A DNA stretch of 62,494 bases, the filler included, from Stramenopiles sp. TOSAG23-6 (Eukaryota): assembly GCA_900128565.1 (NCBI GenBank). It is 14 parts of 14 records of this genome, joined end to end, with 100 filler letters (N's around TTAATTAATTAA, not from the genome) between each part and the next. Parts side by side here need not be neighbours in the genome. Positions count along the whole stretch, not along the records: positions 40,359 to 44,724 come from LT637186.1; 13 more parts are not named here. One strand, given 5' to 3'. Position numbers and translations under genes: made by a program. The notes beneath the pieces were generated by a model. That model was not told the origin of the DNA. It did not search any database and was given only the letters and a program-made list of their open reading frames with translations. Every line of letters begins with the position of its first letter. Positions within the stretch are counted from its first letter, which is position 1. Shown here piece by piece: positions 3,335 to 58,156 of this stretch.

Positions 3335-4190
3335 TCATCTTCTTTTTATTATATGAGTTACTGAATTTTGATGTCTTAATTTTCGTGTATTTGCGAGTTT
3401 AACTCGTTCAAAATTCATTTCTTTTTGCTCTTTATTGGAACGTTCCTGCTCCTCCACTCTTTTAAAAAGCGTACTTTGTAAACTATACGGAGCACGAACA
3501 GGTCTGTCCTTTCCAGATAACAATCTTTGTCTTGCTTCACGAATGGCACGAATCCATATATTTTGAAAAAATATTTTTTTTTTTGGTAAAATTCGTTAGG
3601 TATGAAATTTTCGTACGAAATTTTCAAAAAAAAAAAAAAATTCGAAATTGAAAAAAAAATCCAGAGCAAAAAAAAAAAAATTTTTTTGTTAGGTATGAAA
3701 TTTCATAGTTAAAAAAAAATGTAGAATAAACATTGAAAAAAAAACCTACATCGTCTTTTTTCAGGTGCTGTTTTGCACACAACTGTAAATGTTTTACTTG
3801 GATGATCAATTTGGAACGCTTGCACAAACCTGTTAGAATTACGCCCTGATCGTTTTTCGTGTTGAATTTCTAAATTTTTAATGACTTTCACTCGAATATC
3901 AATTAAATTTAAAATTCGATGTACACGAAATCTTGATGAAAACCAACCTTTTTTTGCATAAAGTACAACATCACTAAATAAAAAAAAATTATATTTTTGG
4001 TACAAATTTTTTGTACTTATTTTCATTAAAACACCTTCTAATAAAAGTTGTCTATTTTTTTTTAAAATTTTTGCAGATTTTTTAAATTTTTTTTGTAATT
4101 CTTCAAGTTTGACTTTTTCATATTTTGTTTGAATTAATTCTTTTAAATTGGCCACTATTTGATGAACATGTAGTGCGAAGATATATATAT
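3335..4190 (-). CDS. C-terminal part of a DH-PH (RhoGEF, FGD-like) protein, 5' partial
   Basis: RQLLLEGVLMKIS...FFLFSDVVLYAK...AFQIDHPSKTFTVVCKTAPEKRR|WIRAIREA is a PH domain after a DH-like helix; exons ~4190-3750 and 3555-3335. Confidence 0.75.
3556..3749 (-). other. Intron, GT-AT, two branch boxes
   Basis: GTAGGTTT...CAAAATATAT; removal creates the invariant PH-domain Trp codon (t|gg). Confidence 0.85.
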
Positions 4191-8921: not shown

Positions 8922-9021
8922 NNNNNNNNNNNNNNNNNNNNNNNNNNNNNNNNNNNNNNNNNNNNTTAATTAATTAANNNNNNNNNNNNNNNNNNNNNNN
9001 NNNNNNNNNNNNNNNNNNNNN

Positions 9022-13635: not shown

Positions 13636-16600
13636 ATAATTGCACCTCGACAAGCTTTTGAAGCAATGACACGACTTACACATTTAGTTTGAAAAAATAT
13701 TTCAACAAAAAAATCTATAATATTTTGTTAGGTACAAAATTTCGTACGAAAAAAAATTCAAATTTTCAAAAAAATAAATGTACAGGGCGGTCTTTTTTTA
13801 TACAAATGTTGTTCATAAAAATTCAATTTTTTTTGATTTTTTGAATTTTTTGAATTTTTTGAATTTTTTTGATTTTTTTCAGTAGGGTTAGGGATAATAT
13901 TAGCATTAGATGCTAATGAAAAAGATGATTCAAGAGCATGACAATATTCAATTAAATCAGCTGAATTAAAAGTATATCCAAGTAAACTTGGAACTTTTTG
14001 TATATGCAATCTTTTTTGGATTATTTCGTGTTTTTTGATTGTTTTGATATTTTTTTCGTGTTTTTCTATTTCATCTTTTTCTATATTTTCATTATCTACC
14101 TTTATATTATCCAATGCGACTGAAATACTTGTTATTGTATACACAAAATTCCATGTAGAGATAATATCTTTATATTGTAACAAAAGTTTTTCATCTATTT
14201 CAGAAATATTTACAATTTGATAAGGTATGATTTTTTTTGTAGATAATAAACTCTTTATATTTTTTTCAAAACGTTCATAACGAACTCTTTCCTATAATGT
14301 GAATATATTACTTTATCATTATTGAAATTTGTTATGAAAAGAATATTGAAAAAAAAATTTAAAAAAAATTTAAAAAAAATTTAAAAAAAAATTTCAAAAA
14401 AAAAAAAAATTTTAAATTTAAAAAAAAAAATTTAAAAAAAAAAAAAAAAATTTTAAAAATTAAAAATTGAAACGTACATGAGCTGCGTGTTGGTCAATAC
14501 ATAAAAGAATATCATTATGTAAAAGTACCATCAAAAATTTACAACTTATACATCCTATATATCTTGCATTGTGTAACATTTCTTTTGTAATAATTATTTT
14601 TGATTTTGTTGACAACTCTCTGAATTTATTCAATTTATCTTTTTTTTTTTTTTTTTTTTCAATTTTTGTGTGTGACGTCATAATTTTCTGCTCTTTTATT
14701 TTTCCAAATAAATGAATATTCGGATTTTTTGGATTCCATACATCCATCGGAAGTTTTTTGTACTTTATTTTTGGTATACAGTTTAATTTTTTTTTAGGTC
14801 TTTCTTTTTCTATTATATCAACTACTGTTGTATCTGTGGATAAACCAGGCCAATTTATAAAATGTTGTTGTTGTTGTTGTTGTTGATTATGTAAATATGG
14901 TTGTTGTTGTTGTTGTTGATTATGTAAATATGGTTGTTGTTGTTGTTGTTGTTGATTTTGTTGATTATGTAAATATGGTTGTTGTTGTAAATATGGTTGT
15001 TGTTGTTGTTGATTATGTAAATATGGTTGTTGTTGTTGTTGATTTTGTTGATTATGTAAATATGGTTGTTGTTGTTGTTGTTGATATTTGAAATCATTCC
15101 TAATTACAGTTGTTGGTTGAATACTAGTTACACGTTCAACGTTTTGACATTTATCATAAAAATCTTCATTGATATTAGTAATATAATCTTTAGTAGTACT
15201 ATTATTAGTAATATAATCTTTAGTAGTACTATTATTACTAATATAATCTTTTGTAGTACTATTATTACTAATATAATCTTTAGTAGTACTATTATTACTA
15301 ATATAATCTTTTGTAGAAGTAGTAATTTGCTGAAAAAAATGATGCACAAAATTATTGATTGCTTTTTCACAATAACTATAATCTAAAAATTGAATTTTTG
15401 TTTTTGTGGCATCAAATAAAATATCGTACATATTATTATCACATTCAATGTACACAATTACTAATGGCAAATGTATATTATATTGTTTTAATGCTGAAGT
15501 TCCACGTTTTGCAATATCTTTGGATTTCGTGTTTTGAAATAGTTTTGAATTTTGTGTATTTTTTACATTTTTTACATTTTTTACATTTTTTATATTTTTT
15601 ATATTTTGTGGAAAATAATAATTAAAAGCATTGTTAAATGATTTTATGATGTTGTAGTGTTTTTGTAAGATTCGTTTGTTAAGAAAAAAATATTGTAGTT
15701 GTTGTGAATGTTTTGGAAATCGTTTTAAAGTAATAAAACCAGAAATTCGAAATTCAGTATTTTTTATATGTTTNGTGTTTTTTGCATTTGAATTCAATTT
15801 TGGTACAAATGTTGTATATGAAATATATTGAAATTCTTTAACTTTGCATAAACCAAAAAATTGACCATATCTACGCAAGATGACGTCACATCCACCATAG
15901 TGCAAATATTTTGGAAAAATATTTAAAAAAAAAATTCAAAAAAATTGTTAGGTACAAAATTTCGTATGAAAAAAAAAACTTTAGTTTTTTTGTTAAAAAA
16001 TAAAATAAAACATACAAATATTTTGGAATATATTCATTATTATGTTTTGATTGTTTTGATTGTTTTGATTGTTTTGATTGTTTTGATTGTTTCTGTCCTT
16101 CAGTCACACGAAATATTCGTTTTGTGGTGGTACGACGAAACCCTAACCCTAATTTTGAATCACTTTGTAGAGATGATTCAAAAAGTGAAAAACCAATCCA
16201 TGGTGTTACTAATGCAATTGTCTGTAGTAGTCTTTTAATACGTTGTACTTCAGCTTTTACATTGATACGCTTTCGACGAACAGGAAATTTTGCAAAGAGT
16301 TGATGACACGTAATTTTTGTTCCACATTTGACAAATTGTTCGAATTGACAATTTTCCAGACTTTTTTGTGATATTTGATAGTTTGAGAGTGTATGAAATG
16401 ATTGTGTCGATCCATCGAATATCTTGACAAGAGGTTCACAACCTTGTTTACTTGATTTTGTTACAATAACTACTGAATTGGATATTGATATAATTGACGC
16501 TAAAGCTTCACCACGAAAACCATATGTCTTGATAGTGTCGAGATCCGAGAGAGATTCTAACTTTGATGTGGCATGAAACGTTCCGATTGCATCTAGATTA

Positions 16601-18004: not shown

Positions 18005-20076
18005 CCATGACAAGTAGCAAGCCAAATGTTGGAAACGAAACCCTATACGAAAACTATGCTATTGTGGCAGAGTTTTCTGATCAAGAACCAGATGAAGAAG
18101 GGGGGATGTACGTTTTCATTTCAATTTCGAATGTATTGTTTTTTTTTCGTACGAAATTTTGTACCTAACGAGTTTGTTTTTGAAATATTTTTTGACAAAA
18201 TATGGAACATGTTGTGTTTGATTCATTACCCTACTGTGCTGAATCACCAGACACATTAGAAATAGTAAAAGGTATTTTACAAAGTGACGTCATTGACGTA
18301 TCTGTTCGCGATGAGTATGGTAATACGATGCTTCAAGCTGCAGTAGCCGCTAATTGTTTTGATATTGTTCAACTACTTCTTTCCTCATGTGGAGCAACGG
18401 CATACGATTGTAACAATGTTGGAGCAACTCCATTGCACTTTGCTACGACTGTAGAAATGGTCAAAATACTTCTAAAACATGGCGCAGATGTACATGCTGT
18501 TGAGACGGAGTCTGGTTGCTCTTCTCTGCATTATGCAGCACAATATGATGACGTTGGTATTATAGATTTACTCGTCGCTAATGGTGCTGATGCAGGTCTT
18601 TTGGAGTATTATGGTTATACTCCTGCAGATTATGCTATAACGGCAAACAAACATGCCAATGCTGAAAGGCTTGAACAAATTTCGCTTGAATCTGAATTTT
18701 GTGCAATGCTTGATCGAGTAGGTATAAAAAAGGGGTGGCTGAAGGATGATATTGAAACAATCAAAGGATATTTTGATATCATTGAAATTAACAATTGTAA
18801 GAAACTCGAAGATGCAAAAGGGTGCATAAATGATATGCTTGGTGCAAAAGGAATTAGTCCTTTTGATGAAAGCACAATATCCTTGTTTCATCGTGAAATA
18901 ACTCTTTCCAAAACAAATCAAGCTGCAGCGAAAATATTACAGCAAAACCTCAATAGCAATATTGCAGACGATTGTGAATGGGTTGTTCAAATAGATAGTG
19001 AAACTGGTCAGCAGTATGAAATAAATACAAACACAGGGGAAAGTAGGTGGAAAACTTGGGACTTGCATGATGATAAAGCTGTATCTAGTGATATATGGCC
19101 TCACACTAATGAAGGTTCTCAATTGCAAGATCGCTATTCGAATGAGAAGGTAACTTTGGTAGCTAAAATGTCCATCGAAGAATCGTCTGAATTTGTAGAG
19201 AAAACCTTATCCAGTAATTCTATGAGTTATAATCCGCTTGGTAAACAAATTATGGATAGTAATTACGCGTGGCAAGCAGATCCTTTTGATCAATGTCTTA
19301 TAATATCAAATGAAACGACTGAAAATGATCTAATACGAATTCAAAAGGATGCTATAGAGCATGGTATCATTATGACCACACGATGTCTAGAACCTATGAT
19401 GAAAAATGTAAATTCAAAACCCTCTTATACTGATCAAACCGAAGAAAATTCAAATAAGCTTGTGGAATCTGAGCGACTGTGTCGTCAATTAAAACTTCAG
19501 TTAGAAAAAGAAAGAAAATCCAGAATTTCTGGGGCAGTATCGACAGAGGCTAAGGTAAAAAGAGATACTGAAAATGAACATCAACGTTTGACTGAGAGAA
19601 TGTCTGAAATGGAAACTGAAAATAGTAAGATTAAAATACAACTGCAGTTAGAAAAAGAAAAATTAGTTACAGTACATCAAGAGTGTGAGAATAAAAATAG
19701 CGAAATTTTGACTTTAACATCTCAAATACATACTGCAAATGCACATCTAGCACAGAAAATGAAAGATATGAAAATGAATGCTGAAAAAATTGCTGCAGAG
19801 CATGTGAAACGCATCACGGCTGAATCTAATCGAAAAGTAATGCAAGTAGAGGCTGATATGAAAGCTTTGACTGCTCGTTTTCTGAAAGAGCAATCCATGC
19901 GTCGAAAGTTTTATAATGAACTAGAAGATTTAAAAGGAAAGGTACGAGTATTCTGTCGAATGCGCCCTTTTGCAAAATATGAAAAAGAAAGAGGTTGTGA
20001 GTACGCAGTGCAAATAGTAGATCAATATTCATTGAAACTTAAAGTTCGGAAAGATTGGAAGACATTTGAATTTGAT
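18005..20076 (+). CDS. Ankyrin repeat + WW-like + coiled-coil + start of kinesin-14 motor
   Basis: Ankyrin repeats (GATPLHFA, GCSSLHYAA); WVVQIDSETGQQYEINTNTGESRW; RRKFYNELEDLKGKVRVFCRMRP...FEFD; GT-AT intron 18108-18203. Confidence 0.8.
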
Positions 20077-20170
20077 GTATGTTTTATTTTTTTTTTCAAT
20101 TTCGAATTTATTTTTCGTACGAAATTTTGTACCTAACGAATTTTTTTTTAAATATTTTTTCACAATACAT
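20077..20170 (+). other. Intron, GT-AT (possible chimeric junction)
   Basis: GTATGTTT...TTTCGTACGAAATTTTGTACCTAAC...CACAATACAT. Confidence 0.7.
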
Positions 20171-22280
20171 CGTAAGTTATTATTAAATATGCGCCGATAT
20201 ACTCCAAACATTTCAGCAAATACAAGTGGAAGTAAAAATAAGAATTATAGTTCATGCTGGGAATATATTATCACTCTTGTCCCACCACTATCTCAAGAGA
20301 CTGAAAGAAGTGATGACGAAAGCTTAATAAGTATTCCATCTAGTGTACTCGATATTATAAAAGATAACAGCCAATCTGACAAGATTCGTTTATATCACAT
20401 AAAACAAATATCTAATTCGTATGGTGGAAATTCAAAAGTCGGGGTAGTTTTAACCGAAATCGCAGCAGATAAAAACGTTTCTAACGTCCTTCGCTTTTAT
20501 ATACTGAAAATCATAGGAACTTCATTTCATAAACAAGCGCAATCAATGGCATTGCAGGTATGTTTCGATTTGCTTATTCCTTTAGTGGTACAATGTTTGA
20601 TGGTATGCGCAGATGCCATGCCTGAAATCGAAGCCATTCGAGCGTTGCTTGTAACTATGCATCCTAAATCAGGTATTCTTGAATTTCGTACTTTTATGAA
20701 AAATCTTGTACAATCAACACTGAAAACGGCACTACAAGCTCGCCCAAATAGTAGTAGCTGGCAATTTTCTCCCCTGCGTGGTGGTAGCCCTGTAAATGAA
20801 GGAAAAGCTTTAGAGATTGCCTTTGGAGTTGGTCCATTCTTTGCCACAAATGCCTTACGAGTTTGTGCTATAGCTGCTGAGGAATTTATTGAGGAGCAAA
20901 AGATGCCTCAAAATACTATAATAGAGTATGATAAATTGCTTGAACTGGCATCATTTTTTTCTCCGTTGATTATCTATGCTACCCGAGAAAAGCGTTCCTC
21001 TGTCTTATTTTCAGGGTCCTCAAATAGTATTACCTCAAATAATGCCACAAGTTCTGATACAGATGACGAATGGGAAGTTTTACAGTTAAAACAGATAAGA
21101 AAAGCAGCTGGAATTCAACAGTTACTACTTCGATTAATATTTACTCAATTTCAAAAAGCATGTCGGTCGAATGACCAAATATTTAGACGTCGAACTGCAT
21201 CATGTCTTCCATATATTTTGCAGCGTTGGGGCTGCTGGAAGGTACCCGGTAAGGTTAATATAAACACTGAAGATTCCCCATATCAACATATAGTTGTAGC
21301 GCGAAGCCCAGCAGAAGAAAAGGTTTTACTTTGGGCCTCAACTATGGCATTTATGGTTCTTAAAAAAACGTTACAAGTAAAATGGGTCGAAGGGAAACAC
21401 CAATTAAAAAATATGCTTCAATCTGTAATTATATCTGATTTCAAATCTTTGAAAGAAGTAGAAGAAATTGTAGGTCAGGAAAAGTTTCTTAAAGCTTATA
21501 AATTAGTAGAGGCTGGTGAAAAAGCATATTTGGCAGGTGTAAGTAAACATAGACGAAATATTCAGAAGAGTACTGTAGCTACATATAATGAATGGATTAC
21601 ATCGATGTCTTCTACTGGTCCAGATGTAAAGACAGATGCAAATTTTTCCATGGTGCAAAGTTGTGTTGAAGTAGCATCGGTGAATATACTGAAACATCGT
21701 AGTTGTGATAGTTGTCGTGTTAGATCTTTGATGAGACTTCTTTACAAACGTCCTGGTCTATGGTTCAAAATGTGCACTACTATTATTGATAATAATGCTG
21801 GGGAAGACGATGATAATATTATTGATAATAATGCTGGGGAAGACGATGATAATAGGTATGGTATGTACACTATTCATCCAAGTACTAGTAAGAAAATGAT
21901 TCGCTATCGTGTAATGCAAAATCCAGAATGCCAACTTCATACAGACCAAGCATATGCGACAAATGATATAGATAATAGTAATTTAACTTGTCTTCCTTTA
22001 ACAAGGTCAATAGAGAGAGCTACCCCTACTAATGATATTCTCAACCAGAAAAATGATAGCAATGAGACTGCAATGTCATCGTTTATGCCGGTTTCTGATG
22101 TTTTAGCTGGACTGCAAGAATTACAAGAATATGTACGTTTTATTTTTTTGAAATTCTAATTGATTTTTTTTATCGTATGAAATTTTGTACCTAACAAAGT
22201 TTTCGACAATTTTTTTTTTTTCACAATGTATAATCAATCAAATAGTGGCTTAGGTCTATTCAACAAACTTGAAGGTGCAT
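20171..22280 (+). CDS. Internal exons of a large helical protein, possibly BEACH-family (pre-PH region)
   Basis: Long open frame; MIRYRVMQNPECQLH resembles the segment preceding PH-BEACH; GT-AT intron 22133-22231; next donor at 22281. Confidence 0.45.
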
Positions 22281-30370: not shown

Positions 30371-30725
30371 TATTATACTCCTAACACTTCTTCTTATTGT
30401 TTACGATGCCTTGGCTATACTTAACACAATTTGTCACTTTGACTATTATTACTATCAGATTTTATTACGCAAGCAGAATGATGATGATTGAAATGAAGAA
30501 AATGGTTTTGGGAAAATTTTATGGGTCAGAAAAGGTACCAGGTAACGGTATCAAATTTCGAATTAATTCATCGATATTATTTTATTGATTTTTTTATCTA
30601 ATTTCTCAAATTTAATCAAATATGTGTTATTATTTTTGTTTGTATATGAAATGTTTCACCCTTTTATAAACAACAGGGAAACATTTTAGTACAATAATAA
30701 ACAGATAATAATAAGAAAAATAAAT

Positions 30726-31323
30726 TTAAAAATATTTTTCAAGCATTGCTTGTGCATACTTATTACTGGCATTAGCAGCTTTGGTATACCACTTTTTAGC
30801 TTCTTTTTTGTCTACAGCAACACCATGACCAAATTGATAGCAATAACCAAGATTATTTTGTCCACTGCTATGACCTGCATTAGCGGATTTAGTATACCAC
30901 TTGAAAGCTTCTTTTTTGTCTTCAGCAACACCAATACCATATTCATAACAATAACCAAGATTACTTTGTCCACCACTATTACCTGCATTAGCGGATTTAG
31001 TATACCACTTGAAAGCTTCTTTTTTGTCTTGAGCAACACCACGACCATGTTGATAGCAATAACCAATATAATTTTGTGAAATACTATCATCACTATTATC
31101 CATAAACATCTTAAATGCTTTTTCCTCATCCTTTTTATAACCATTCCAACCACTAAGTGTACAAAATGCAATAGCTGTTGGAAAACCAGCAATAGCCACA
31201 GATTCAATCATTAGTCGTCCATTCTCTTTATCAATAGTCTGAAAGTCATTACCATAAAACTTCGCATAACCAAGTTCAAATAAATTCTGTGCACCTTTAT
31301 TTTCTATCTTTTGACGTTTTACT
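30726..31323 (-). CDS. Sel1-like repeat protein, 5' partial
   Basis: Three 36-aa repeats QxNLGYCYxxGxGVAxDKKEAFKWYTKSANAG. Confidence 0.9.
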
Positions 31324-31760
31324 NNNNNNNNNNNNNNNNNNNNNNNNNNNNNNNNNNNNNNNNNNNNTTAATTAATTAANNNNNNNNNNNNNNNNNNNNN
31401 NNNNNNNNNNNNNNNNNNNNNNNCACAGCAATGAAATTTCTTCATTGGTTCATTACTTCCATATTTATATCAATGTTGTTTTATTTTATAACCGCTCTCC
31501 ACGAAATCTGTAAAAAAATCGAAATGTCGAAAATATTGTACTTGAAATAATCAAATCGAAATCAAATCGATCAAAATTTTCTTTTCTTTTCACATTTACT
31601 ATACACTTGACTAAAGTTTGACTTAGTTTAAAATTAAAAATCCAATTGATTGTTAAATATTGATTGTGACTGAATGATATCATCATGCTTCCTATGATAT
31701 ATTTCCCAACTGATTGATATATAGAAGCATTTCTCTTTGATTAAGATTCCTTTAAAAACA

Positions 31761-33912
31761 ATGGAGGATGGACATCGGAAAGGATTTGGAGGAAAAACGA
31801 TTGGAAATATAGGTTCCTTTATTTATTTAGTGAACCAGATTTTCGGGCCTGGTGTCCTTGCTCTTCCTTACGTTGTTATACAGAGTGGATTCATCCCATC
31901 GTTATTGATGAATGTATTCATGTGTATGGCTTCGGCGTTATCTTCAACAATGCTAATGGGTGCAATACGTGCAATTCCTCAAAATAGACATCTTCAACAA
32001 AGATTAGGATTTTTTAGTGCAATTCGTTTTTACTATGGTACAAAAGTCGCAACAGTGTTTCAATTTTTTCTTCATTTAACGTTACAATCGTTAAATATTG
32101 CTTCAATCATCGATGTGGCTTGTGCATTTGATAAGTTACTACTAAAACTAGTTGGTAAAACACCAGCATTAGAAGTTTCACCTCACTTTCATTTTGGATT
32201 ATTTGATCTTAATTGGGTGAGTTCAGTTTATGGCTCAGATCAATCTACAATAACATTTGCATTAACTTTAGGGTATTGTATTGTTGGTTTGTTATGTATA
32301 CCAATGGGAATGTTTAATATTGATGATAACATCATTGTACAAATTGTCTCTTTTATATTTTTAGTCATTCTCATTGGTATTTTTGTACTTCAATGTATTA
32401 TTGATGGATTTCGTGCAGATCATTTTGACAATAATGATGAAGATTTCGTATTTCCTTCTTTTTTTGGTTCAGAGTATCGAGGATTAATGGCAGTCTATAT
32501 ATTTTCATACAGTTATACAATGCTAATTCCTCCATGTAACTATATATTTTTTACATTTATTTGAATTTTTTTTTTTCAAAATGAATTTTTGTTTCGTACG
32601 AAATTTTGTACCTAACAAAATATTTGAAATTTTTGAAATATTTTTTTTATATTTCATGGGCAAATGAAGCGAAACGAAACGTTAATATTGGAAAACAAAT
32701 TTGGTTATCTGCTTTAACATCATGCATTGGTTATTTGATTGTTGGTATGTAATTCAATAATATATTTTGAATTTGAATTTTTTTTGAATTTTTTTTTTGA
32801 ATTTGAATTTTTTTTCATACCTAACAAAATTTTAACTTTGATTTGTTAGACTTTTACATGGACTCTACTCGCTTGTGCATATCCAAATATTACAACAGAT
32901 AATGTTCTTCTCAGTATATTAAACAGTAAATATTCTAATTGTGTGTTTATATTTTAAATATCATTTTTTTTTTAAATACAAAANTNTATACCNAANAAAA
33001 AAAAANTCATTTTTTTTTNATATATTTTTCAAAAATATATTAATTACAAGAATTGCTGCATATGCATTTGCTGCCACAATTATATTACCAGGTATCCCTG
33101 TGTTTTGTATAACAACTCGGTATGATTTACAAATGAGTGGAATATGTTCGTATGTACGTTTTTTCGTACTATTTTTTTATTTTTTTGAAATTTTATTTTT
33201 CGTACGAAATTTCATACCTAACAAAAAAAAATATTTTTTTTATGAAATATTTTTCAACATGTAGAGACAAAGTATTTTTTTTGGAAACATTGCTCCATGG
33301 TTAATTGCTTGGTGTTTATCATCTGCTACTGCTTTTTCATCCATGTTGGTATGGACAAGTTTGGTATGTGGATCTGTAGTGAATTACATTGTACCTTTAT
33401 TTTTATACAGAACATCAATTTTAAAAGCCAAAGAAAACCCTAACCCTAGTACTATGAACCCTAACCCTAGTATAAATGATGATAGAATAAGTCCTAACCC
33501 TAGTTCAAATGATGATGAAGAAGAAGTAAAAGAACAACAACAAATTCGAAATTCATTAGGTATGAAATGTAGAATAAATTCAATTTCAAATTTATCTGTA
33601 CTTGAGTCACCACTAATTGAAAACTTTTATAATCAATACAATGATGAAAGAAAAATGAATGAAATAAATACTATAGACATGAACCCTAACCCTAATCAAC
33701 AATCCTCGTATAATGGCTTTTATAATGAAGAAGAAAATTTATTGAATATAGACATGAACCCTAACCCTAATCAACAAAACCCTAACCTTAATCAACAATG
33801 GACTGTTTACCCTAAATGTGTTCAAAAATACGAAATGTATATAACAAATTGTATATTAGTGTTGATTCTGATTTCAGTCATTACTTGTATCACTATACAA
33901 ATTTTTAAATAA
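31761..33912 (+). CDS. Amino-acid transporter (duplicate copy)
   Basis: Identical to 27292-29443. Confidence 0.8.
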
Positions 33913-34277
33913 AGTTGAAATGAGTTGAAATGTCCAAAACAATTTCGAGAGTAAATGACAATCTATATTGAAGTTGAATACTATATATGATATATATGTA
34001 TATATATGTATATAATAATAATACAATTAATTTGAATCATCTTTTTATTTTATTTCTTCACAAAACCAAATAAATCACTTTTTTGTTGTTCAATTCAAAA
34101 CACAAAAATACAAAATAATGACAAGCCCATTTGACTTGGACTAAATATTTTCATTGTACCATTTCTCACCATGACTCCAAAATATTCTTGTGCATATCGA
34201 TCAATGTAGACCAATCTACTTCACTTGTATATTCTTTTCGAAACAAACCAAATGTATTCTATACCTGATTTTGTTAG

Positions 34278-34839
34278 TTAAACACTTTTACGATCTGTCA
34301 TGACACGAAGTATAGAACCAACACCGACTTTTGTGTTTAATAATGAATGCCACCTAAATAGTGTTGAAGCGCGTTTTGGATCTTCTAAACCTTTGTAAAT
34401 ATATTTCATAAGTACATCATAGTATTCTGGTGAAAGTTTATTGATACATGACTTAATTTTATCGTCTCTACATCCGTATAAAACTTTATAAACACATTCT
34501 GCGTTAGCTTCCTATAATGTAAATGAAAATGTCAAAGTGTCAAAAATGAAGGAATAAGTTCAAAAGTATGTACAACTATACGATTCAAGTATATTATAAA
34601 AACACAGTATCAAAGGGTATAAACGGGATGTTGAATTCTGATGAGTGAAAATACTTGTAAAAGATGATATGATGTTGTACTTTTGAAGAACTTACCTTGA
34701 CTTCTTTGTTTTTACTACCCAATGGTGGGTTCTCCAAAGATTTAGAAAGAGCTTGCAAGAAATTATTTTGACTTAGTAAATCTTCCACTTCTGATTTTTT
34801 TATGCGAATGCTATCTAGAAAAGCAGCATCATTTGACAT
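34278..34839 (-). CDS. ARPC5: Arp2/3 complex subunit 5 (duplicate copy)
   Basis: Identical to 29809-30370. Confidence 0.88.
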
Positions 34840-35194
34840 TATTATACTCCTAACACTTCTTCTTATTGTTTACGATGCCTTGGCTATACTTAACACAATT
34901 TGTCACTTTGACTATTATTACTATCAGATTTTATTACGCAAGCAGAATGATGATGATTGAAATGAAGAAAATGGTTTTGGGAAAATTTTATGGGTCAGAA
35001 AAGGTACCAGGTAACGGTATCAAATTTCGAATTAATTCATCGATATTATTTTATTGATTTTTTTATCTAATTTCTCAAATTTAATCAAATATGTGTTATT
35101 ATTTTTGTTTGTATATGAAATGTTTCACCCTTTTATAAACAACAGGGAAACATTTTAGTACAATAATAAACAGATAATAATAAGAAAAATAAAT

Positions 35195-35792
35195 TTAAAA
35201 ATATTTTTCAAGCATTGCTTGTGCATACTTATTACTGGCATTAGCAGCTTTGGTATACCACTTTTTAGCTTCTTTTTTGTCTACAGCAACACCATGACCA
35301 AATTGATAGCAATAACCAAGATTATTTTGTCCACTGCTATGACCTGCATTAGCGGATTTAGTATACCACTTGAAAGCTTCTTTTTTGTCTTCAGCAACAC
35401 CAATACCATATTCATAACAATAACCAAGATTACTTTGTCCACCACTATTACCTGCATTAGCGGATTTAGTATACCACTTGAAAGCTTCTTTTTTGTCTTG
35501 AGCAACACCACGACCATGTTGATAGCAATAACCAATATAATTTTGTGAAATACTATCATCACTATTATCCATAAACATCTTAAATGCTTTTTCCTCATCC
35601 TTTTTATAACCATTCCAACCACTAAGTGTACAAAATGCAATAGCTGTTGGAAAACCAGCAATAGCCACAGATTCAATCATTAGTCGTCCATTCTCTTTAT
35701 CAATAGTCTGAAAGTCATTACCATAAAACTTCGCATAACCAAGTTCAAATAAATTCTGTGCACCTTTATTTTCTATCTTTTGACGTTTTACT
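35195..35792 (-). CDS. Sel1-like repeat protein (duplicate copy)
   Basis: Identical to 30726-31323. Confidence 0.85.
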
Positions 35793-43271: not shown

Positions 43272-44724
43272 ATGACATCCCACATGTCAAAGGCTGTAAG
43301 ATCAGCTACTGACTCAGAAATATTCGATCTTGGTGGTTATAACGAAGATACTATACACTTGCTAGTTGATCAGTGTTTCAAAGAGCCTTTTCCAATCTCT
43401 ACAATGATCAAAATAAGTTTCATTGTAGGCGCTGGAAAAGCTACACGCGGTAGATACAATAGTTCATTACCAAAGTATATGCGTGCAGCTCTCCAGAAAG
43501 TCGGATTTTCTGAAGATCAAGGAGCATGCTGTATGGATACCAGTGCAGGTTTGTTCAAATATCAACATGATACTGGAAAGAACCAAATTTTTATCCATGT
43601 ATTCCCACTTCTGAAAGTTGCGGATGGGTCGTTTCCACCAGTACCTCCTCAAGCTGAAGAAATAAAGGATCCTCTAACAATGTGTTGTGAATGTAGTTTT
43701 TCTACTTTTAAGAAAATAGTGGAGAAACAAACTCCTTCGGTTACAACTAAACGTCGTCTACATGCATGTTTTATTTATTTTTTTGTTTTCGAAAAAAAAA
43801 AATCGATTTTTTTTTCGTACGAAATTTTGTACCTAACAATTTTTTTTTTTTGGTAAAAAAATTTTGAAATATTTTTCCAAAATACATGCTGCTTTAAAAG
43901 ACGCCAAGAAAGAATTTACTTCTATTGAAAAGAAGTTAATGAATGGTGAGACACTTTCAATCAAAGAATCAGAGAAATATTCTAATTTTGAAGACATAGA
44001 AGATAAAATAGAGTATGTACGTTTTCAAAATTGGATTTTTTTTGAATTTTTTTTTTTTGAAAATTTTGTACCTAACAATTTTTTTTTTTTTTGGTAAAAA
44101 AAAAATTTTGAAATATTTTTCCAAAATAAATGTTCATTCTCTGCAAATCGCTCAAGTAAAGCGTGGTGAAATTACTGCGGAAGAAAAAAATATATTGAGG
44201 TCCAATCTTTTTTCAAAGATAAAAACTTTAGAGATGGAAATAAAAAAATGTGAAGAAAATGCATCAGAAAATGTAAGCAAACCAAATCTAGCTGCAAAAT
44301 ATAACAAACATGTAGAAAAGTTACAGAAAGACAGAACGTTTTATTTATTTTTTTGTTTTTTTTGTTTTCGAAAAAAAAAAAATCGAATTTATTTTTCATA
44401 CGAAATTTTGTACCTAACGAATTTTTTTTTATAGAAAATTTTGAAATATTTTTCCAAAATAGGCAACAAACTGAATATTCGTATGAATTCTCTCAAAGAT
44501 AAACCAACAAAAGACGTTTTGACAATTTTCCCTTTAAAAAATAAAGAAGAATTTGAGTCAATTTGGCTTCAGGCTGATCGAATAAAATCATGTACGTTTT
44601 ATTTTTTTTTTTTTTTCGAAAAAAAAAAAAAAATCGAATTTTTTTTTCATACGAAATTTTGTACCTAAAAAATTTTTTTTTTTTTTTTTTTTGAAATATT
44701 TTTCCAAAATACATATCTATTTTC
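43272..44724 (+). CDS. Uncharacterised protein with four motif-class introns, 3' partial
   Basis: Introns 43764-43887 (GC-AT), 44017-44131 (GT-AT), 44334-44462 (GA-AG) and 44592-44714 (GT-AT); the first three joins give a continuous frame. Confidence 0.75.
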
Positions 44725-49172: not shown

Positions 49173-49394
49173 NNNNNNNNNNNNNNNNNNNNNNNNNNNN
49201 NNNNNNNNNNNNNNNNTTAATTAATTAANNNNNNNNNNNNNNNNNNNNNNNNNNNNNNNNNNNNNNNNNNNNTATGTTTTATTTATTTTTTAAATTTTGA
49301 AATTGAATTTTTTTTTTTTTGAAAATTTTGTACGAAATGTTGTACCTAACAAATTGAAATTTTTTTTTTCTGAAAATATTTTTACAAAATACAT

Positions 49395-52300
49395 CGATCT
49401 CCATTGTGTTATGCTTGTCAAAGAGGAAATGAAGATATCGTACGTTTTTTGTTATCACAGGGAGCTAATATTCATCATTGTGATGATACATTACAAATGC
49501 CTCTAGGGTATTCAACATCTTTGAATATTATATCTTATTTACTGTCTAACTTGTTTGAAAAGAACAAATTCGAAAAAAACAAATTGGAAAAAAACAAGTT
49601 TGAAACCAATGAAAACAACAAGTTTGAAACCAATGAAACAAACGGTATATCAATTCGTCCAATTCAAAATAATCCAACACAAAATCATATTGATAATCCT
49701 ATTTTGTTAAATAATACTGAAAAACAACAATTAAAGAAATATTTGAATCATTTAAATCAAGATAATAAATCAGCTTTAACATTTGCTTGTCAAAATGGAA
49801 ATCTAAAAGTAATTAAATATTTATTAGAAAAAGGTCTTGATGCTACAATTCTTGATACAAACAAAAAAACATTGTTGATGCATGTTCCACAATGTCAAAA
49901 TCAAATTCAAATTTTTCAATGCTTATTTGAAGCAGGTATGTTTTTTTTTTTTTTTTACAGAAAAATCGAATTTATATTTTTTTTTTTATAAAAAATTTGT
50001 ACCTAACGGGTTTTTTTTTGAAATATTTTTCCAAAACACAGGCACAAATGTAAATGCGAGAGATAGCACAGGTAAAACTATAATGCATTATGTAGCTGCA
50101 CAGACCAATGGAGCAAACCTGATGAAGTTAATAACCTCTTCATTTGAAACAATGATGTCCGTTTTCAATTTCGAATTTCAAATTTCAAATTTATTTTTTT
50201 TTATTTTTTTTTTTTGGTTTTTCAAATTTATTTTTTTTTATTTTTTTTTTTTTGGTTTTTGGTTTTTGGTTTTCATACGAAATTTCGTACCTAACATTTT
50301 TTTTTTATAGAAAATTTTAAAATATTCTTTCATAATATATTGATGCTATTGATGAAACCAAGCGAACACCTTTAAGTTATGTATCTAATTCAGATAGTGC
50401 ATCTCATTTGCTTCAAATAGGATCAAATGTAGATATTGAAGATATTCAAAAAAGAACGGTGTTAAGTTATATATGTGAAGCAGCAAGAGACCCTAACCCT
50501 AACCATAACCAAAATTATAAGAGAATATTACAATTATTATTTTCTTGTGGTGCTGATTTCTCAGGAGGTCATGCTAAACGCAATGCAATAACATTTGCAT
50601 CAAAACCTAATATATTAAAACAATTTGTGAAATCTGGTGCAAATGTTTTTTCCACTGATTCGCATGGGCGAAATATTTTGCATTATTTTGCTTGGAAATG
50701 TTCTCAAAACCCTAATTCTTGTTGTAATGAATTGACGACAAGTTGGAATTCTGAGGATAAAAAATGGGTTTTGAACCCTAACCCTAATCCTAGTTCAACT
50801 ATAAAAAGTCATACATTGATACAATCTACATCTTCAGACTTTTCTAATGATATTGAAATTGCTAAAGTACTCCAAGTGAACATGGAAAAAGCAAAGGCAA
50901 TTCATATAACTGCAGAATCCGTCCGAGCAAATGCTGCGGTTCATTGTGTGCTCCAACAGACGTATAGAATAGCAAAAGCAGAAGAAAAACGATTTCAAAA
51001 ATATGCTGATATTAAAGTTACACTTGAATTGGCTGCAAGGCAACGATGGAACAAAGCACAATATGGAATACCTGCAGAAACTCTTGTCACAATAAATAAT
51101 GAATTATTAAAGTCTAAAATAAATGAAACTGCTGCAAGAGTACAGTATAATTTAATGGCTGCAGGAAAACATGATGCAACAGCATTGACAAAGTTATCCA
51201 AACATGTATAATTTCATCATGAATTTATTAATTTATTTTTTTATACGAAATTTCGTACCTAACTATTTTTTTTTTTGTAATTTTTTTTTTTTTTTTTTTT
51301 TACCAAATTTTGGACCCAAACTTTTTTTTTTTTTTTTTTAAACATGTCGCATCTATGGTCGATACATACCAACAGACTGTGCGTAGATGTACGTTTTCAA
51401 TTTTGATTTTTTTTTTAAACTTTTGAAATTTTTTTTTGTATGAAATTTTGTACCTAACCAAAAAAAAACCCAAAAAAAAAACTAAAAAAAAAATTTTTTT
51501 TTTTTCAAAATATTGTTCAAAAATGTATGGTTTGTTGCTCATGGCATTTTATCCGATGACAAGGTGAAACAATTAGGTAGACAACTTTCTGAACAGAAAG
51601 ATGTTTTACAGTCTCAAGAAAGATCTTTACAATCATATTTGGATAAATTGCAAATTGCAATGGAAAAGAAAGCAACAATACAAAAAATACAAAAACAATC
51701 TAAATCAAAATATTCAAAATATTCAAAATATTCAAATTCAGATAAAACAGACAGTTTTTTGAAAGACGAAAAAAACATTGAAAACAATGAAAACAATGAA
51801 AAAGAAATCAAACAACTTGAAGATAAAAAGAGAGAAGTATCTAATGAAGTCGAGGTATGTTTTTGTTTCAATCTTTTTTTTTTTTCAATCTTTTTTCGAT
51901 TTCAAATTTGCTTCATTTTTACATAGTAAATTTTGTACCTAACAATTTAAAAAAAAAAAAAAAAATGAAAAAAATATTGTTTTGTAATATAGGTAGCACG
52001 CCAAATAGTACACAAATTACAAGAAACATATACAAAAGCATTAAATGCAAAAAACCTTTCAAATGCTTATATAAAGATAAGAGATAATAAAGTTGCCCAA
52101 GAAAAAATATATAAACAATTACAAAATGTGTTGGGTGTAATACCTACAGAAGAAAAGAAACAATTGAAAACAAAATGGATGTATGTTTTAATTTTTTTTT
52201 TTGAGACTTAAAAAAAAATCGATTTTTTTTTTATAAAAATTTTGTACCTAACAATTTTTTTTTGAAAATATTTTCCAAAAATATATGAATATTCAATTTG

Positions 52301-53546
52301 TACTTGCTGAAGCGATGCATTCCGTTGTGAAATCAAAAGCCAAAACTAAACAAGCGTATATAAAAATGAAAAATGCATGGAAACAATGTCAAGATGCACA
52401 TATTGAATATGGAATGGCTTGTTTGTTTTATATATTTTTTTATATATTTTTATATATTTTTATATTTTTTATATATTTTTTTATATTTTTTTTTTTTTTT
52501 CATAGTAAATTTCATACCTAACAAAAAAAAAATAAAATATATTTTTCACAAAACATGTTTGACAAAAGAATCTCGTGATAATCTACTTAAATATCGTACC
52601 ATGAAAGAATTTGAATCAGATTCAAATCCAGGAAAATATTTTGGCATTTTAGGAACATTACAAACAAGTTTTGGGCTTGGTATTGATGTGAATAGTGTAG
52701 ATAGAAAAGGTCGTTCAATATTGCATTACATTATTGGCGTGTACAACCCTAACCCTAACACTACTATACACACAAAAAACAAAAAAAACAAAAAAAACAA
52801 AAAAAACAAAAAAAACAAAATACAAAATTCAAATTCAAACATACATATAAATATTGTAGATTCAGGTATATTACACGTTATACAAAAGCAACAGAGATTG
52901 GCTTTACAATTAGCCTTATCCATGGGAGCAAATATTGACATTTGTGATTGTGAAGGACGTTCGACGTTAAGCTATGCATGTATCTTTTAATTTTTTTTTT
53001 AAATTTTTTGTCTACATTTTTTCATAGTAAATTTTATACCTAACAATTTTTTTTTTTACTAACCAAAAAAAAAAAAATTTTGAAATATTTTTCCAAAATA
53101 CATGTGAATATGAAAATCATCAAGCCATTGAACTTCTTTTGTTTGCTGGAGCAAATGTACATTGTACAGATAATTCAAATAGAGATCCAATTACGTAGGT
53201 TTTTTTTTTTTTTTTGTAAAACTTGTTAGGTACAAAATTTCGTACGAAACCAAAAAAAAAAAATATATTTTTTTTTTTAATTTTTTTTCTTACATTTTTT
53301 TTTATAGTAAATTTCATACCTAACAATTTTTTTTTATAGTAAATTTTTAAATATTTTTTCACAATATATATATGCTTGTAGTTTAAAAAGTCTTTTACTT
53401 TTATTAGACGCCGATGCATCGCCAAATAGTAAAATCAATGCAGAAAATGTAACTATATTAATGGAAGCATCTAAGAATGGTTCAGTTTTAATTGCCAAAG
53501 CTCTGTTAGCAAAGGGTGGTTCAATTTTGGTACGAGATGTTGATAT
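49395..53546 (+). CDS. Large ankyrin-repeat/coiled-coil protein, partial, ten exons
   Basis: Introns 49936-50041 (AG), 50157-50340 (AT), 51206-51345 (AT), 51389-51528 (AT), 51855-51992 (AG), 52181-52286 (AT), 52421-52556 (AT), 52980-53103 (AT) and 53195-53369 (AT) give a continuous frame with intact ankyrin repeats. Confidence 0.85.
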
Positions 53547-53564
53547 GTTTGTTTTTTTCATCCA

Positions 53565-53617
<53 letters not shown>

Positions 53618-53989: not shown

Positions 53990-54350
53990 TATTATTCACA
54001 TTTTAAAAAAGTTATTATTGGGCATGTACGTTTTTTTTTTCATACGAAATTTTGTACCTAACAAAAAAAATGACCAATTTTGAAATTTTGAAATTTTGAA
54101 ATTTTGATTTTTTTTTTTTTGGTTTCATACGAAATTTTGTACCTAAGAAAAAAAAATTAACCAATTTTGAATTTAATTTTTTTTCACAATATATCGAGGT
54201 GCAGTNAATGCATGCGCATTTTTACCTGAAGGGGATAGTTGTATTTCTGTTGGAAATGATAAATCATTACGCATTTGGAGCACATTACCAAATGATATTG
54301 ATGAGAGTTATGCAACTGATAGTGAATATGAATATTATACTGATGATTAA
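53990..54350 (+). CDS. Last WD40 repeat of a WD40 protein, 5' partial
   Basis: IIGH|RGAVNACAFLPEGDSCISVGNDKSLRIWS after removing GT-AT intron 54026-54194. Confidence 0.75.
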
Positions 54351-54522: not shown

Positions 54523-56332
54523 ATCTTTTGTGTTTGATAGAAGCATTGCCGTATTATGAAGACGTTGAACAGCTTCAAGTAACCAAGCATTCATATCACT
54601 AGGTACATAGGATGCAGCAAAATTTTGTAATGCAGCAATAGCATCAGTATAATCTCTTGATATTTCTTTTGTTTTTTCAAATAAATTTTCATTATTTTTT
54701 TTTTCAAATTTTTTTTCAAAATGTTTTGTTTTTTTTGTTTTTTTTATTTTTTCATCATCTTGTTCAGTATATTGTTCATCATCTTGTTCATCATCTTGTT
54801 CAGTATATTGTTCATCTATATTTTCATCATCTTGCTGATTATGTTGTACATCACGCACAGTGTCTATGTTTAATGGATGGAATGAACCAACACTTTCTCT
54901 TTCAAGTTGTTTTTCTTTGAAATCAGTCATGANTATATATATTTTGGAAAAATATTTCAAAAAAAAAAAATCTAAAATTTTTTTTGTTAGGTACAAAATG
55001 TCGTATGAAAACCAAAAAAAAAAAAAAAAAAATTTTAAATTTAAATTTAAAAAAAAAAAAAAAAAAAACATACATTTTCAGCAATATTGCTCTGTTTTGA
55101 TATTTTTTCTACTTCAAATGTTTTACTACAAAATCCTGAAAATCCTGAAATAAACTGAGTTGATACTCCAAGTTCTTCCATTGTAAATGATTGTAACCAT
55201 ATCATTTGTTTTTGCCATCGTTTGTCCTCTTTATCAATAATTGATTGATTATAACATTGACATAATTTTTTTATAGGTGCTAAATTATAAATTGCATTTG
55301 AGGCGAGTAATAGTAAACAATTATTTTCTTCTTTTTCCGCCTTTTCACAATATCGTTTTGTTTTTTCAATTTCAGTTGCGAGACACTGAGCTTCAATTTC
55401 TGTAGTTGATGTATTTTGGAAAAATATTTCAAAAAAAATTTTTTACCAAAAAAAAAAAAAATTTGTTAGGTACAAAATTTTCAAAAAAAAAAAATGTAGA
55501 CTAAAAAAACATTGAAAAAAAACAAAAGATACATGTTGGCGAAGTGGATAAAATGGTTGTCAACCGTCTTGAAATACGTGAAGATGTTGTTTCGGATATT
55601 TTAGGTGTTTCGGATGTTTTAGGTGTTTCGGAGGTTTTAGGTGTTTCGGAGGTTTTAAAGGTTTTTAAGGTTTCATTTTCATCTTTTATATTTTTTTGTT
55701 TCATTACTTTTATTTGAGCTTTCGCAACAATACGAGATTTAACTTTAGCTAATCGAAGTTTTTTTGATAGTCTTTTTGTATCATATTGACCAATTTCAAA
55801 ATGTGCAGCTACAGCTTTAGAAAAATATTCAACAAAAGCATGAACTAAACCAGGAGGCAAATAATAATTATTATTATTATTATTATTATTATCATTATTA
55901 TTATTTGTAGTAGTAGTAGTAGTAGTATTTGTAGTAGTAGTATTATTATTATTAGTAGTAGTAGTATTATTATTATTAGTAGTAGTATTATTTGTAGTAG
56001 TATTATTATTATTATTATTAGTAGTAGTAGTAGTATTATTAGTACTAGTAGTAGTATCATAAATATTATTATTATTATTAGTAGTAGTAGTATCATTTAT
56101 AGTATTTTTTTGTTTTTTTCGTTCCTTCAAAACTTCTTCCGTACGTGTTCTAACTCTATTTAACCATCGATACAAAAGTCTTCCTGGTCTGTTTCTCACA
56201 TCTAATGCAATTGAATTAAACATATTTTGTAAAATAAAAGGAATTTTCAAACCCTTTGGTGACTCAAAATTCCACACAGCTCCTTTATCATCATTATCAT
56301 CATTATTATTATTTGTTGTATCATCATTACTA

Positions 56333-56363
<31 letters not shown>

Positions 56364-57969
56364 TATTATCATTATTATTATCATCACTAGTATCATCATC
56401 ATTATTATCATCATTATTATCATCATCAGTATTATCATCATCATTATAACAATAATCACGAAAAACACTTTGTAATCCAATATAATCAAATTGTCCAGAT
56501 TTCGTGACATCATGAATAATACCTAATAAATCGTTTTTTTGTACTTCATAAGATCGTAATCGAGATCGTGATTCAAGTATTGTGAAAAAATATTTCAACA
56601 AAAATTTTAGAAAAAATTGTTAGGTACGAAATTTTTTTACGAAATTTTTTTACGAAAAAAAAAAAAAATTAAATTAGAAATTCATATAAAATTAAATTAG
56701 AAATTCATATAAAACGTACAACCATTGCGATACGTTTTGTTGAACGGTCAAACTCTTTCTGTATTTCGTGTACTTTTTGAACATGTGTAAATATATAATC
56801 ATCTCGGGCTGCTAGCATGTACTGTGAAAAACAATATTTCATTTTTTGATTTTATTTTGTTTTTGTTAGGTACAAAATTTCGTATGAAAAAAAATTTCAC
56901 AAAAAAAAAAAAAATGTTGAAATTTTTGATTTTGTTTTTTTGTTTTCTATGAAAATTTCGTATGAAAAATCAAAAAAAAATATATCGAAAACATACATTT
57001 CCGGAGGAAGAAAAAAATTACCTGCTAATACAGGAATTGCAATTTTTTTCTTATCAATTAAAAAATTAACACAATCTTGTAACTCAAGGCACCATGAATG
57101 TGATGATTGATAATTTGGTGCAGCTAGAAAAAAAGTTTTAGGCCCAGTACGGGATGGGATACCTAATAAAAATATATTTTGTAAAGAATATTTTTTTTTT
57201 CATATTTTTTTGTTAGGTACAAAATTTACTATGAAAAAAAAACTGTAAAAAAAAAAATGTAATTTTTTTTTTTTTTTTTTTTTTACATTTGTTAGGTACA
57301 AAATTTACTATGAAAAAAAAATTTATGAAAAAAAAAAAAAAAAAAAAAATTCATGAAATGACACAGACGCATTTTCAACACTTCCAAATCCCATAGAAAT
57401 GCATTCTTCGGACGTTTTAGGATCCGATACCCATGTTTCACTAGTAAAATCAATAAATCCTCTAGGAGTCAATTTTTCTTCAATCGCACGTTTTTTATAT
57501 ACAGTGATTNGNTCAGTTNTTTTTTTTNGANTTTTTTTTTGAATTTTTTTTCAAAATTTTTTTTGAATTTTTTTTCAAAATTTTTTTTGAATTGTTTTTC
57601 AAATTATTTTTTGAATTATACAGTGAATCTTCATGTGTAATTGTCGTATCCATTGTAGTATTCCATGGTAACTCTGTCTCTTGATAATAATATAAACGAA
57701 ATGCTAGAGGTCGTACAGAATCGGGATAAATTGTAAAGAAATATATTTTTTTTAGTTTTTTAGTTTTTTAGTTTTTTAGTTTTATAGTTAGGTACAAAAT
57801 TTACTATGAAAAAAAAAAAAAAAAATTTGAAATAACAAACATGATATTGTTTCCATTGTAAAGTAGTATTATTTAATCGGACAATTATCGGTGGATATTG
57901 GAGAGGTGCAAATCGGAAGTTACGCCATTTCCATCTTCGTAGAATATCTGAACGTTTTAATAAATTTCC
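54523..57969 (-). CDS. PH domain plus probable VPS9 (Rab5 GEF) domain protein, partial, Asn/Thr/Asp-rich inserts
   Basis: GNLLKRSDILRRWKWRNF...LYYY...PRGFIDF...ENAF...TFFLAA...W (PH); YTDAIAALQNFAASYVPSDM (VPS9-like). Introns 57726-57840, 57174-57368, 56817-56996, 55409-55532 and 54937-55073 (AT) and 56575-56719 (TT); 57500-57620 unresolved because of Ns. Confidence 0.7.
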
Positions 57970-58156
57970 ATGTATTTTTCAAAAATATGTTTCAAAAAAA
58001 AAAATCGTTAGGTACAAAATTTCGTACGAAAAAAAAAAAAAAAAAATAAAAAAAGGNNNNNNNNNNNNNNNNNNNNNNNNNNNNNNNNNNNNNNNNNNNN
58101 TTAATTAATTAANNNNNNNNNNNNNNNNNNNNNNNNNNNNNNNNNNNNNNNNNNNN

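Follow-up and report, generated by a model that had tools for sequence, protein, structure and literature searches.

A recurrent box in Stramenopiles sp. TOSAG23-6 probably marks the middle of introner-like elements whose 3' junctions may lack AG

The 62,494-nt stretch of DNA from Stramenopiles sp. TOSAG23-6 analysed here (assembly GCA_900128565.1; referred to as the window) contains many copies of a box of about 25 nt, which is probably the middle of an introner-like element that acts as an intron in the genes of this AT-rich protist. Introners are intron-making elements that resemble miniature inverted-repeat transposable elements (MITEs) and are known from Micromonas, Aureococcus, dinoflagellates and others, according to a published account (PMC11282704). 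The copies in the window form a repeat family with a common anatomy, they are biased towards the sense strand of the adjoining open frames and they are flanked by a short direct repeat. Deletion of an element together with one copy of that repeat rejoins the reading frame in most usable cases, and the bases at the resulting 3' junction are mostly AT.

Results

A repeated element with the box at its centre

The window consists of 14 pieces of ~4.4 kb, ordered by falling length and joined by 13 linkers of the form N44-TTAATTAATTAA-N44 (4414-4513, 8922-9021 and so on to 58057-58156). It is draft sequence with Ns and long homopolymers, and may contain errors. One sequence is apparently present twice, as the pieces 26955-31323 and 31424-35792, whose layout of open reading frames (ORFs) is the same and whose element sequences are identical; the piece 31424-35792 was excluded from counts. 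An initial annotation had described the box as recurring dozens of times, and the counts bear this out: the two strands together contain 40 exact matches to GTACCTAAC against 0.13 expected, and none of 100 dinucleotide shuffles gave more than 2 (one match, at 32608, falls in the duplicated contig). With the duplicate excluded, the right-hand core of the box, TACCTAAC, has 48 matches, versus 6 for TACTAAC and 1 for TCCTTRAC. Box copies are clustered in single-strand runs, on the same strand as the adjoining open frames.

The box is not an isolated motif: GTACCTAAC always lies within stereotyped, AT-rich putative introns. It forms the central block of a repeated element of ~95-195 nt, of which the 5', middle and 3' blocks are all conserved in an 18-copy alignment. 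A profile built from this alignment gave 49 matches in 62 kb at E<=1e-3, 47 of them outside the duplicate piece. The density is ~0.7 elements per kb, with several per gene in some genes. The element opens with GTAYGTTTT; T runs and, in many copies, CAATTTCGAA lead up to the box, which is followed by a T run and TTGAAATATTTTTCCAAAATAYAT. The tail of the element is CCAAAATAY followed by a 2-nt copy of the bases that precede the GT. An adjoining open stretch of at least 100 codons was found on the element's own strand for 21 of the 49 profile matches and on the opposite strand for 1, revealing a sense bias.

The family appears to extend well beyond the window. Among the sequencing runs listed, only two small DNA-type runs of one sample (X1 and X2), and no RNA run, contain the stretch. 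When contigs from X1 and X2 were aligned to 49273-53617, 3775 and 3310 contigs, respectively, were placed, with many joints between different element copies. Summed contig depth across this region was ~8-20 in exon-only bins and 1e3-3e5 in element bins; these summed depths are not copy numbers and are taken only as a sign of very high genome-wide abundance. The sole match in a metagenome 25-mer scan was a contig (L001) reading ...AAACAT/GTATGTTTT...TTTCGTACGAAATTTCGTACCTAAC...CACAATACAT/GG..., in which the open frame continues once the element, CAT/GTATGT...ACAT/, is removed. Scans of viral contigs and prokaryote genomes with the box gave no match. Two copies in opposite orientation, 60889-60915 (+) and 61057-61117 (-), are separated by ~150 nt in a part of the window that has no long open frames, and may be intergenic or UTR (untranslated region) copies.

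Sequence variation within the box falls mainly at the three CpG positions of the ancestral form TTTCGTACGAAATTTCGTACCTAAC, many of the variants being CG to TG or CA, and a TAGTAAA sub-type is also present. The donors GTACGT, GTATGT and GTACAT vary in the same way as the CpG positions of the box. The variants CATACG, TAGTAAA and TTTCATACC described initially were all recovered, and all keep TACCTAAC. In the 24 elements with both ends visible, the putative branch A of this core lies 34-71 nt before the inferred intron end. The early description of a box 30-80 nt before an acceptor was thus right about the distance, while 'acceptor' does not hold in the usual sense, most ends not being AG. A CTAAC-like core on the sense strand upstream of the inferred 3' end is what would be looked for in a U2-type branch site, and from its position, strand and invariance the CTAAC end of TACCTAAC is a plausible candidate branch site.

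Element ends, reading frame and flanking repeat

Element ends were not chosen by eye; 3' ends were taken from the profile alignment and 5' ends from a simple GTAYGTTTT score. Twenty-four elements have both ends free of N, and 21 of these were usable for a frame test, their donors scoring 12 or more and both flanks being open for 30 codons or more. When the acceptor was slid over ten positions, the position one base beyond the profile end (plus multiples of three; hereafter the rule position) joined the flanking frames in 15 of the 21 elements, compared with 4/21 and 2/21 for the other phases. At the rule position the termini of the 24 elements are GT-AT (17), GT-TT (2), GT-AG (2) and GC-AT (1), the remaining 2 having doubtful donors (44350, which starts GAACGT, and 49274, which is truncated by a linker). 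Junction peptides match ankyrin-repeat spacing at 49936, 52980 and 53195, judged against the ankyrin consensus.

In 19 of 24 cases the element closes with the same 2 nt that precede its GT (permutation mean 13.0; none of 5000 permutations reaches 19). A 3-nt match is found in 7/24, versus 2.8 expected, and 22/5000 permutations reach 7. AT occupies exon positions -2,-1 of 16 of the 24 elements, the background frequency of this dinucleotide in the window being 0.103, and elements that end in TT or AG often have matching TT or AG exon bases (15907, 56577, 49936). Some flanking matches are longer, reaching 13 nt for the element at 15904-16015 and 5 nt for the copy reported initially. The flanking repeat resembles a short target-site duplication (TSD). 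Together with the conserved ends of a full-length repeated unit and the depth piled over the elements, it supports the earlier suggestion of a mobile element with the box as its core. Because of the flanking repeat, and because the frame is restored through its second copy, most copies would be GT-AT and not GT-AG.

An AG cannot rescue most copies, since AG is absent between the box and the end in 12 of the 21 usable elements and the first AG after the box, tried as acceptor, is in frame in only 9/21, close to chance. AG-ended units do exist (1449-1555, 25041-, 28684+, 49936-50041, 51855+ and 44334-44462; a sign after a position denotes the strand), most of them without a flanking repeat. Two other ways of setting the 3' end were rejected: taking the longest direct repeat picked spurious positions, and a first simple 3' motif score was confounded by A/T richness. 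A chain search through 49273-53617 that admitted any 'repeat or AG' acceptor worked in only one starting frame and gave a 1013-residue open frame; it has 64,512 solutions, and the acceptors are therefore not fixed by this frame.

A sub-family (13684-, 44350+, 50262+, 53293+ and 54939-) carries TTTTATAG 12-16 nt past the box, a normal-looking branch-to-AG distance. Use of TTTTATAG as acceptor would leave a 30-35-nt tail in the exon, with a stop in 50262 (determined by hand). It could be an alternative acceptor.

Proposed mechanism and its weak points

We propose that the element is a short, non-autonomous, MITE-like transposon, with the box as its best-kept block, which lies in sense orientation within protein-coding genes and functions there like an intron. 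It would supply its own 5' splice site at its first base (GTACGTTTT, often GTATGTTTT), followed by T runs, the CAATTTCGAA block and the box TTTCGTACGAAATTT(C/T)GTACCTAAC, whose right end TACCTAAC, with its CTAAC core, would serve as the branch site; a T run and the tail TTGAAATATTTTTCCAAAATAY come after the box. Past insertion by transposition would have duplicated 2 (sometimes 3) target bases, mostly AT, and the frame would be restored when the RNA loses the stretch that begins with the G of GTAYGT and includes the second copy of the duplicated bases. The 3' junction would then be whatever had been duplicated (AT mostly, TT or AG in a few), because removal runs through the second repeat copy, and AG would not be obligatory there. 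On this model, excision by the spliceosome is what lets genes tolerate the element. More tentatively, and with rather less than even confidence, we speculate that a major-type spliceosome picks a 3' site without AG and removes thousands of GT-AT and GT-TT introns right after the duplicated bases, guided by the tail and the long branch box TACCTAAC, possibly with a co-evolved U2 small nuclear RNA (snRNA) or branch-binding protein.

Several points weigh against this proposal. The rule position is out of frame in 6 of the 21 usable elements. At 52979 the rule picked a wrong, short flanking frame, and ankyrin spacing fits the rule position; at 44350 the profile anchor is 2 nt off, the element ending by eye in ...AAAATAG at 44462; 1452, 1639 and 13684 have competing flanking frames; and at 56821 an AG five bases upstream fits better. 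Moreover, the cut can slide within the repeat, so that GT-AT is indistinguishable from AT-AC (or AT-AT, AT-AA), and frame restoration after deletion of an insertion with one repeat copy is expected of any insertion and is no stand-alone proof of splicing. The constancy of TACCTAA, unchanged in all 46 aligned box copies (45 from the window and 1 from L001), is partly circular because copies were picked by this motif or by a profile containing it, and copies with a changed core are known: CCTAAA at 44664, CCTAAG at 54142 and TACCAAAC near 26574. The GTAYGTTTT and AAAATAC ends could pair over 4+3 bp with a bulge (GUAUGUUUU with AAAAUAC, by eye), a putative terminal inverted repeat (TIR) of short, imperfect and AU-rich sequence; fold prediction gave weak structures (mean z -1.3, 20 plain shuffles each), with ends paired over at least 6 bp in 11/23. 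No transposase or autonomous copy was seen, and the Pfam families matched among the 14 large ORFs scanned, 6 of which have no Pfam family, include no transposase.

The element with the altered core near 26574 (26574-26680, +; mutated core TTTGTACCAAAC) has an AG before its GT, yet its end is AT. Its existence means that the core tolerates change.

Bursts of intron gain are at present best explained by introners, and in most known families the insertion must yield a legal GT-AG pair. If the mechanism proposed above is true, a strong donor and a strong branch site allow a spliceosome to do without AG, intron gain is possible at almost any site, and the organism is a natural system for AG-independent choice of the 3' site and for co-evolution of branch site and snRNA. 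If the elements use an ordinary AG or stay in the RNA, they are merely another repeat family in a draft genome. A literature search gave no account of TACCTAAC or GTACCTAAC as an intron or branch signal among the matches listed; accounts elsewhere are possible.

Alternative explanations

The left half of the box had been noted to contain two perfect palindromes, TTTCGTACGAAA and GTACGAAATTTCGTAC, from which alternative hairpins beside the branch site could form as a structural splicing signal. As written, both are palindromes in the ancestral form, and both are intact in L001 and at 61070-61096. The second is imperfect in the DNA of most copies, however, because these carry TTTTGTAC (T, not C). 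In the covariation check on the box alignment, 70.7% of cells are paired in the first hairpin, versus 69.9% in column shuffles (123/500 shuffles as high), and 82.6% in the second, versus 80.9% (93/500 as high). The informative pairs are broken in distinct rows (7-22 in 21/33, 10-19 in 14/33 and 6-11 in 14/33), and the folds predicted for whole introns are weak and differ in how they pair the box. Since pairing equals that of shuffles and informative pairs are broken in many copies, the stems are not kept as RNA helices; the hairpin signal is largely refuted, and we would give it hardly any credence. We regard the palindromic left half instead as a decaying DNA-level feature of the ancestral element, with TTTCGTAC twice and GTACG at the 5' end. 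The branch-pairing GUAGUA of U2 is almost universal, and a U2 altered in this region (e.g. GUAGGUA(C) for GUAGUA), another of the initial suggestions, would pair with TACCTAAC without a second bulge. Such a co-evolved U2 is compatible with introners and would add to that explanation; by itself we consider it unlikely. It accords with TACCTAAC being TACTAAC plus one C and outnumbering TACTAAC by 48 to 6, with the retention of TACCTAAC in degenerate copies whose left half has decayed (28330-28356, 1485-1511) and with a report on Amoebozoa, in which U1 snRNA has co-evolved with GUUUGU and GUACGU donors (bioRxiv 10.1101/2022.06.08.495308). However, canonical GUAGUA still pairs with CUA-C (4 bp), or over 6 bp with one bulged C (by hand), the base preceding TACC varies (G in 40/52, A in 9/52), copies with a changed core exist, and the young age of the copies alone accounts for much of their identity. 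An Rfam scan of the window at gathering thresholds gave zero matches and no snRNA. A similarly improbable alternative is that the box merely hitch-hikes within a young repeat, as one of its conserved pieces, the true branch point lying elsewhere, for instance in the TTTTGAAAT block ~21 nt before the end. The copies are indeed closely alike over their full length, parts without an obvious role included, the box-to-end distance of 34-71 nt is long and variable, and TTGAAAT lies at a near-fixed distance from the end in many copies; minor introns of Physarum have a TTTGA branch motif, but at -10 to -12 (bioRxiv 10.1101/2020.10.12.336362). Against this, CTAAC is far closer than TTGAAAT to the general branch consensus, degenerate copies that lack the TTGAAAT tail keep TACCTAAC 25-37 nt before an AG (28348+, 1452-, 25041-), and the core is constant in all aligned copies, which were picked by motif, whereas neighbouring non-CpG positions vary by 6-15%.

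Two further explanations concern how the element would be removed. It could be an internal eliminated sequence of the ciliate kind, excised from DNA between short direct repeats, and the short, AT-rich and very numerous insertions in coding sequence, bordered by 2-nt direct repeats of which one copy must stay, would fit. The strand bias of 21 versus 1 is expected of RNA processing and not of DNA excision, though, every copy has a sense-oriented GTAYGT start and CTAAC box, and long ORFs are read with the standard code. Elements are also present in the dominant DNA of the runs, and no precise skip of a single element is found among the joints listed, a weak point because contigs break at repeats. 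Neither strand-independent excision nor element-free DNA was thus found, the latter being the weaker part, and DNA elimination is very unlikely, given the bias in strand and splice signals that point in the sense direction. The 3' ends of U12-type introns are flexible (AT-AC, GT-AT, AT-AA and so on), and removal by the minor spliceosome would accommodate the non-AG ends of the elements. The box resembles TCCTTAAC in CCT-AAC, and two copies (52980, 55532) start with GTATCTTT, like the '+6T' minor 5' site of Physarum. The 5' consensus is GTAYGTTTT, however, and not RTATCCTT, which has 6 matches in the window and none at element starts; TCCTTRAC has a single match in the window, and no such branch motif marks the region near the 3' end. 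The box lies 34-71 nt from the end, versus about 45 nt or less for minor branch sites (bioRxiv 10.1101/2020.10.12.336362). The minor-spliceosome explanation fails because both motifs and the distance disagree, and we rate it extremely unlikely.

In the tail, the A of the TTTGA within TTTTGAAAT (e.g. 43863-43871) lies ~21 nt before the end and recalls the TTTGA of Physarum minor introns described in that preprint.

Catalogue of elements and features of the window

The coordinates of individual elements are collected in Table 1.

Table 1. Box features and elements of the window; elements are listed as putative introns with their inferred ends, and a slash marks a junction.
Feature	Position	Strand	Remarks
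Reported box TTTTTCGTACGAAATTTTGTACCTAAC	43811..43837	+	Left part a decaying palindrome, right part the TACCTAAC core
TACCTAAC core, putative branch site	43830..43837	+	Putative branch A at 43836, 51 nt upstream of the intron end
Element holding the reported box, 124 nt, GCATGTTTT...CCAAAATACAT	43764..43887	+	Frame restored (L H / A A L K)
TACAT, exon bases before the 43764-43887 element		+	Recur as the last 5 nt of the element (read from the sequence)
Duplicated AT, upstream exon-side copy	43762..43763	+	Downstream copy 43886-43887 is the last 2 nt of the intron
Element GTACGT...ATAAAT	44017..44131	+	AT/AT flanks
Element with odd GAACGT start and TAG end	44334..44462	+	End set by eye; profile anchor 2 nt off
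Element with box variant GTACCTAAA	44592..44714	+	CAT/GT...ACAT/
Element GT-AG	49936..50041	+	CAG on both sides; splits an ankyrin repeat (EA[G]TNVNARD)
Long element GTCCGT...ATATAT	50157..50340	+	AT/AT flanks
Element GTACGT...ATGTAT	51389..51528	+	AT/AT flanks
Element GTATGT...ATATAT	52181..52286	+	AT/AT flanks
Element GTATCT...ATACAT	52980..53103	+	CAT/CAT flanks; removal gives a 33-residue ankyrin unit, DCEGRSTLSYA[C]EYENHQAIELLLFAGANVHCT
Element with inverted partial box copy	53195..53369	+	Inverted copy at 53218-53259, minus strand
Double element with tandem boxes	54026..54194	+	Second box GTACCTAAG; one GT...AT unit
Element GTACGT...AAATAT	18108..18203	+	AT/AT flanks
Element GTATGT...ATACAT	20077..20170	+	AT/AT flanks; between 627- and 660-codon open stretches
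Element GTACGT...ATGTAT	22133..22231	+	TAT/TAT flanks
Element GT-TT in the MLH3-like gene	15904..16015	-	Last 13 nt equal the 13 nt before GT
Element GTATCT...ATACAT	55409..55532	-	ACAT/ACAT flanks
Element GTACGT...ATACTT (GT-TT)	56575..56719	-	TT/TT flanks
Double element, two CATACCTAAC boxes	3556..3749	-	One GT...AT unit
Degenerate relative GTACGT...TATAG, canonical ends	14292..14477	-	TTCATAAC instead of an intact box; MLH3-like gene junction DQHAAH/ERVRYE

At 15904-16028 (-) the 13 bases before the GT, which are TCCAAAATATTT-like, far exceed the usual 2-nt repeat; they may be what is left of an older copy that adjoined the element, or may stem from a duplication longer than usual. An element at ~13525-13636 (-) apparently starts with ATATGTTTT instead of GTATGTTTT, with A at +1, and its 3' end is lost in a linker; a final C there would make it an AT-AC pair.

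The window has a G+C content of ~30% and open frames of up to 961 codons with the standard code. The domains encoded are eukaryotic: ankyrin repeats, WH1/PBD, CRAL-TRIO/PH, RRM, cNMP-binding and a MutL homologue. The best matches of the MutL-like protein are MLH3 proteins at ~36% identity, and searches of a protein atlas and for homologues gave no close relative whose gene structure could supply orthologous intron positions. Its gene (14460-15935, -) contains long low-complexity inserts of TKDYISNNST repeats and QQQQQPYLHNQQ repeats.

The window contains 21 copies of a telomere-like sequence, CCTAACCCTA, which comprises two CCCTAA units and would be expected 0.01 times; they lie at 1527, 3310, 8189, 13883, 16142, 28970-29300, 36600, 45209, 45968, 50492, 50777 and 52748. 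The sequence is found both between genes and within open frames, where it reads N-P-N-P (RDPNPNHN, VLNPNPNPSS, VYNPNPNTT), or LGLG on the other strand; the metagenome contig L001 has telomere-like repeats as well (~160-230). These repeats may be interstitial telomeric insertions.

Comparison with known systems

As described in PMC11282704, the introners of Micromonas pusilla and Aureococcus share with the present elements a large number of near-identical short introns at unrelated positions, here seen in the 49 profile matches, the depth pile-up and L001. They also share the sense-strand bias within genes (21 versus 1 of the 49 matches), a short TSD (the 2-nt and 3-nt repeats, both beyond permutation) and, possibly, short TIRs, the candidate inverted repeat here being imperfect. 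In the same account one splice site comes with the element and the duplicated bases contain the other junction, as we propose. The duplication gives a proper AG in Micromonas pusilla and Aureococcus, whereas here it is mostly AT (17-19/24), which implies a non-AG 3' junction; a junction drawn from duplicated bases that are mostly AT is the departure from known introners. A long yeast-like branch box sets the present elements further apart from those described there, and their splicing is predicted from sequence.

For the AT junction, the closest parallels (PMC11282704) are the MITE-derived introns of Fritillaria borealis and Amoebophrya and the nonconventional introns of euglenids. In Amoebophrya and in Fritillaria borealis, a tunicate, the non-canonical introns are transposon-derived, with a TSD and a TIR (the latter only putative here), and like the present elements they take their 3' junction from duplicated exon bases; their removal is thought there to be due to a major spliceosome tolerant of non-GT/AG ends. 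Fritillaria introns mostly end in AG-AC or AG-AT and have no 5' GT, whereas the present elements have a strong 5' GTAYGT and only their 3' end is odd. The host, an AT-rich protist, differs as well. In euglenids, the same text describes nonconventional and 'intermediate' introns with non-canonical borders, junction repeats, pairable ends that join the exons and a suspected MITE origin. Their pairing is CAG/CTG at +4..+6 and -8..-6, whereas end pairing is weak here, and in contrast to them donor motif and branch box are both strong in the present elements.

The minor introns of Physarum polycephalum recall the present family in their mass gain, extended motifs, unusual ends and, possibly, short terminal inverted repeats (bioRxiv 10.1101/2020.10.12.336362). 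The motifs given there are RTATCYTT and TTTGA at -10 to -12, in contrast to GTAYGTTTT and TACCTAAC at -34 to -71 here. With the yeast-type TACTAAC branch site the box has in common the CTAAC core, the sense position upstream of the 3' end and a GTATGT-type donor. It differs in the extra C of TACCTAAC, in conserved context that reaches 8-10 nt further upstream, in the 34-71 nt that separate it from the 3' end and in the non-AG end of most copies.

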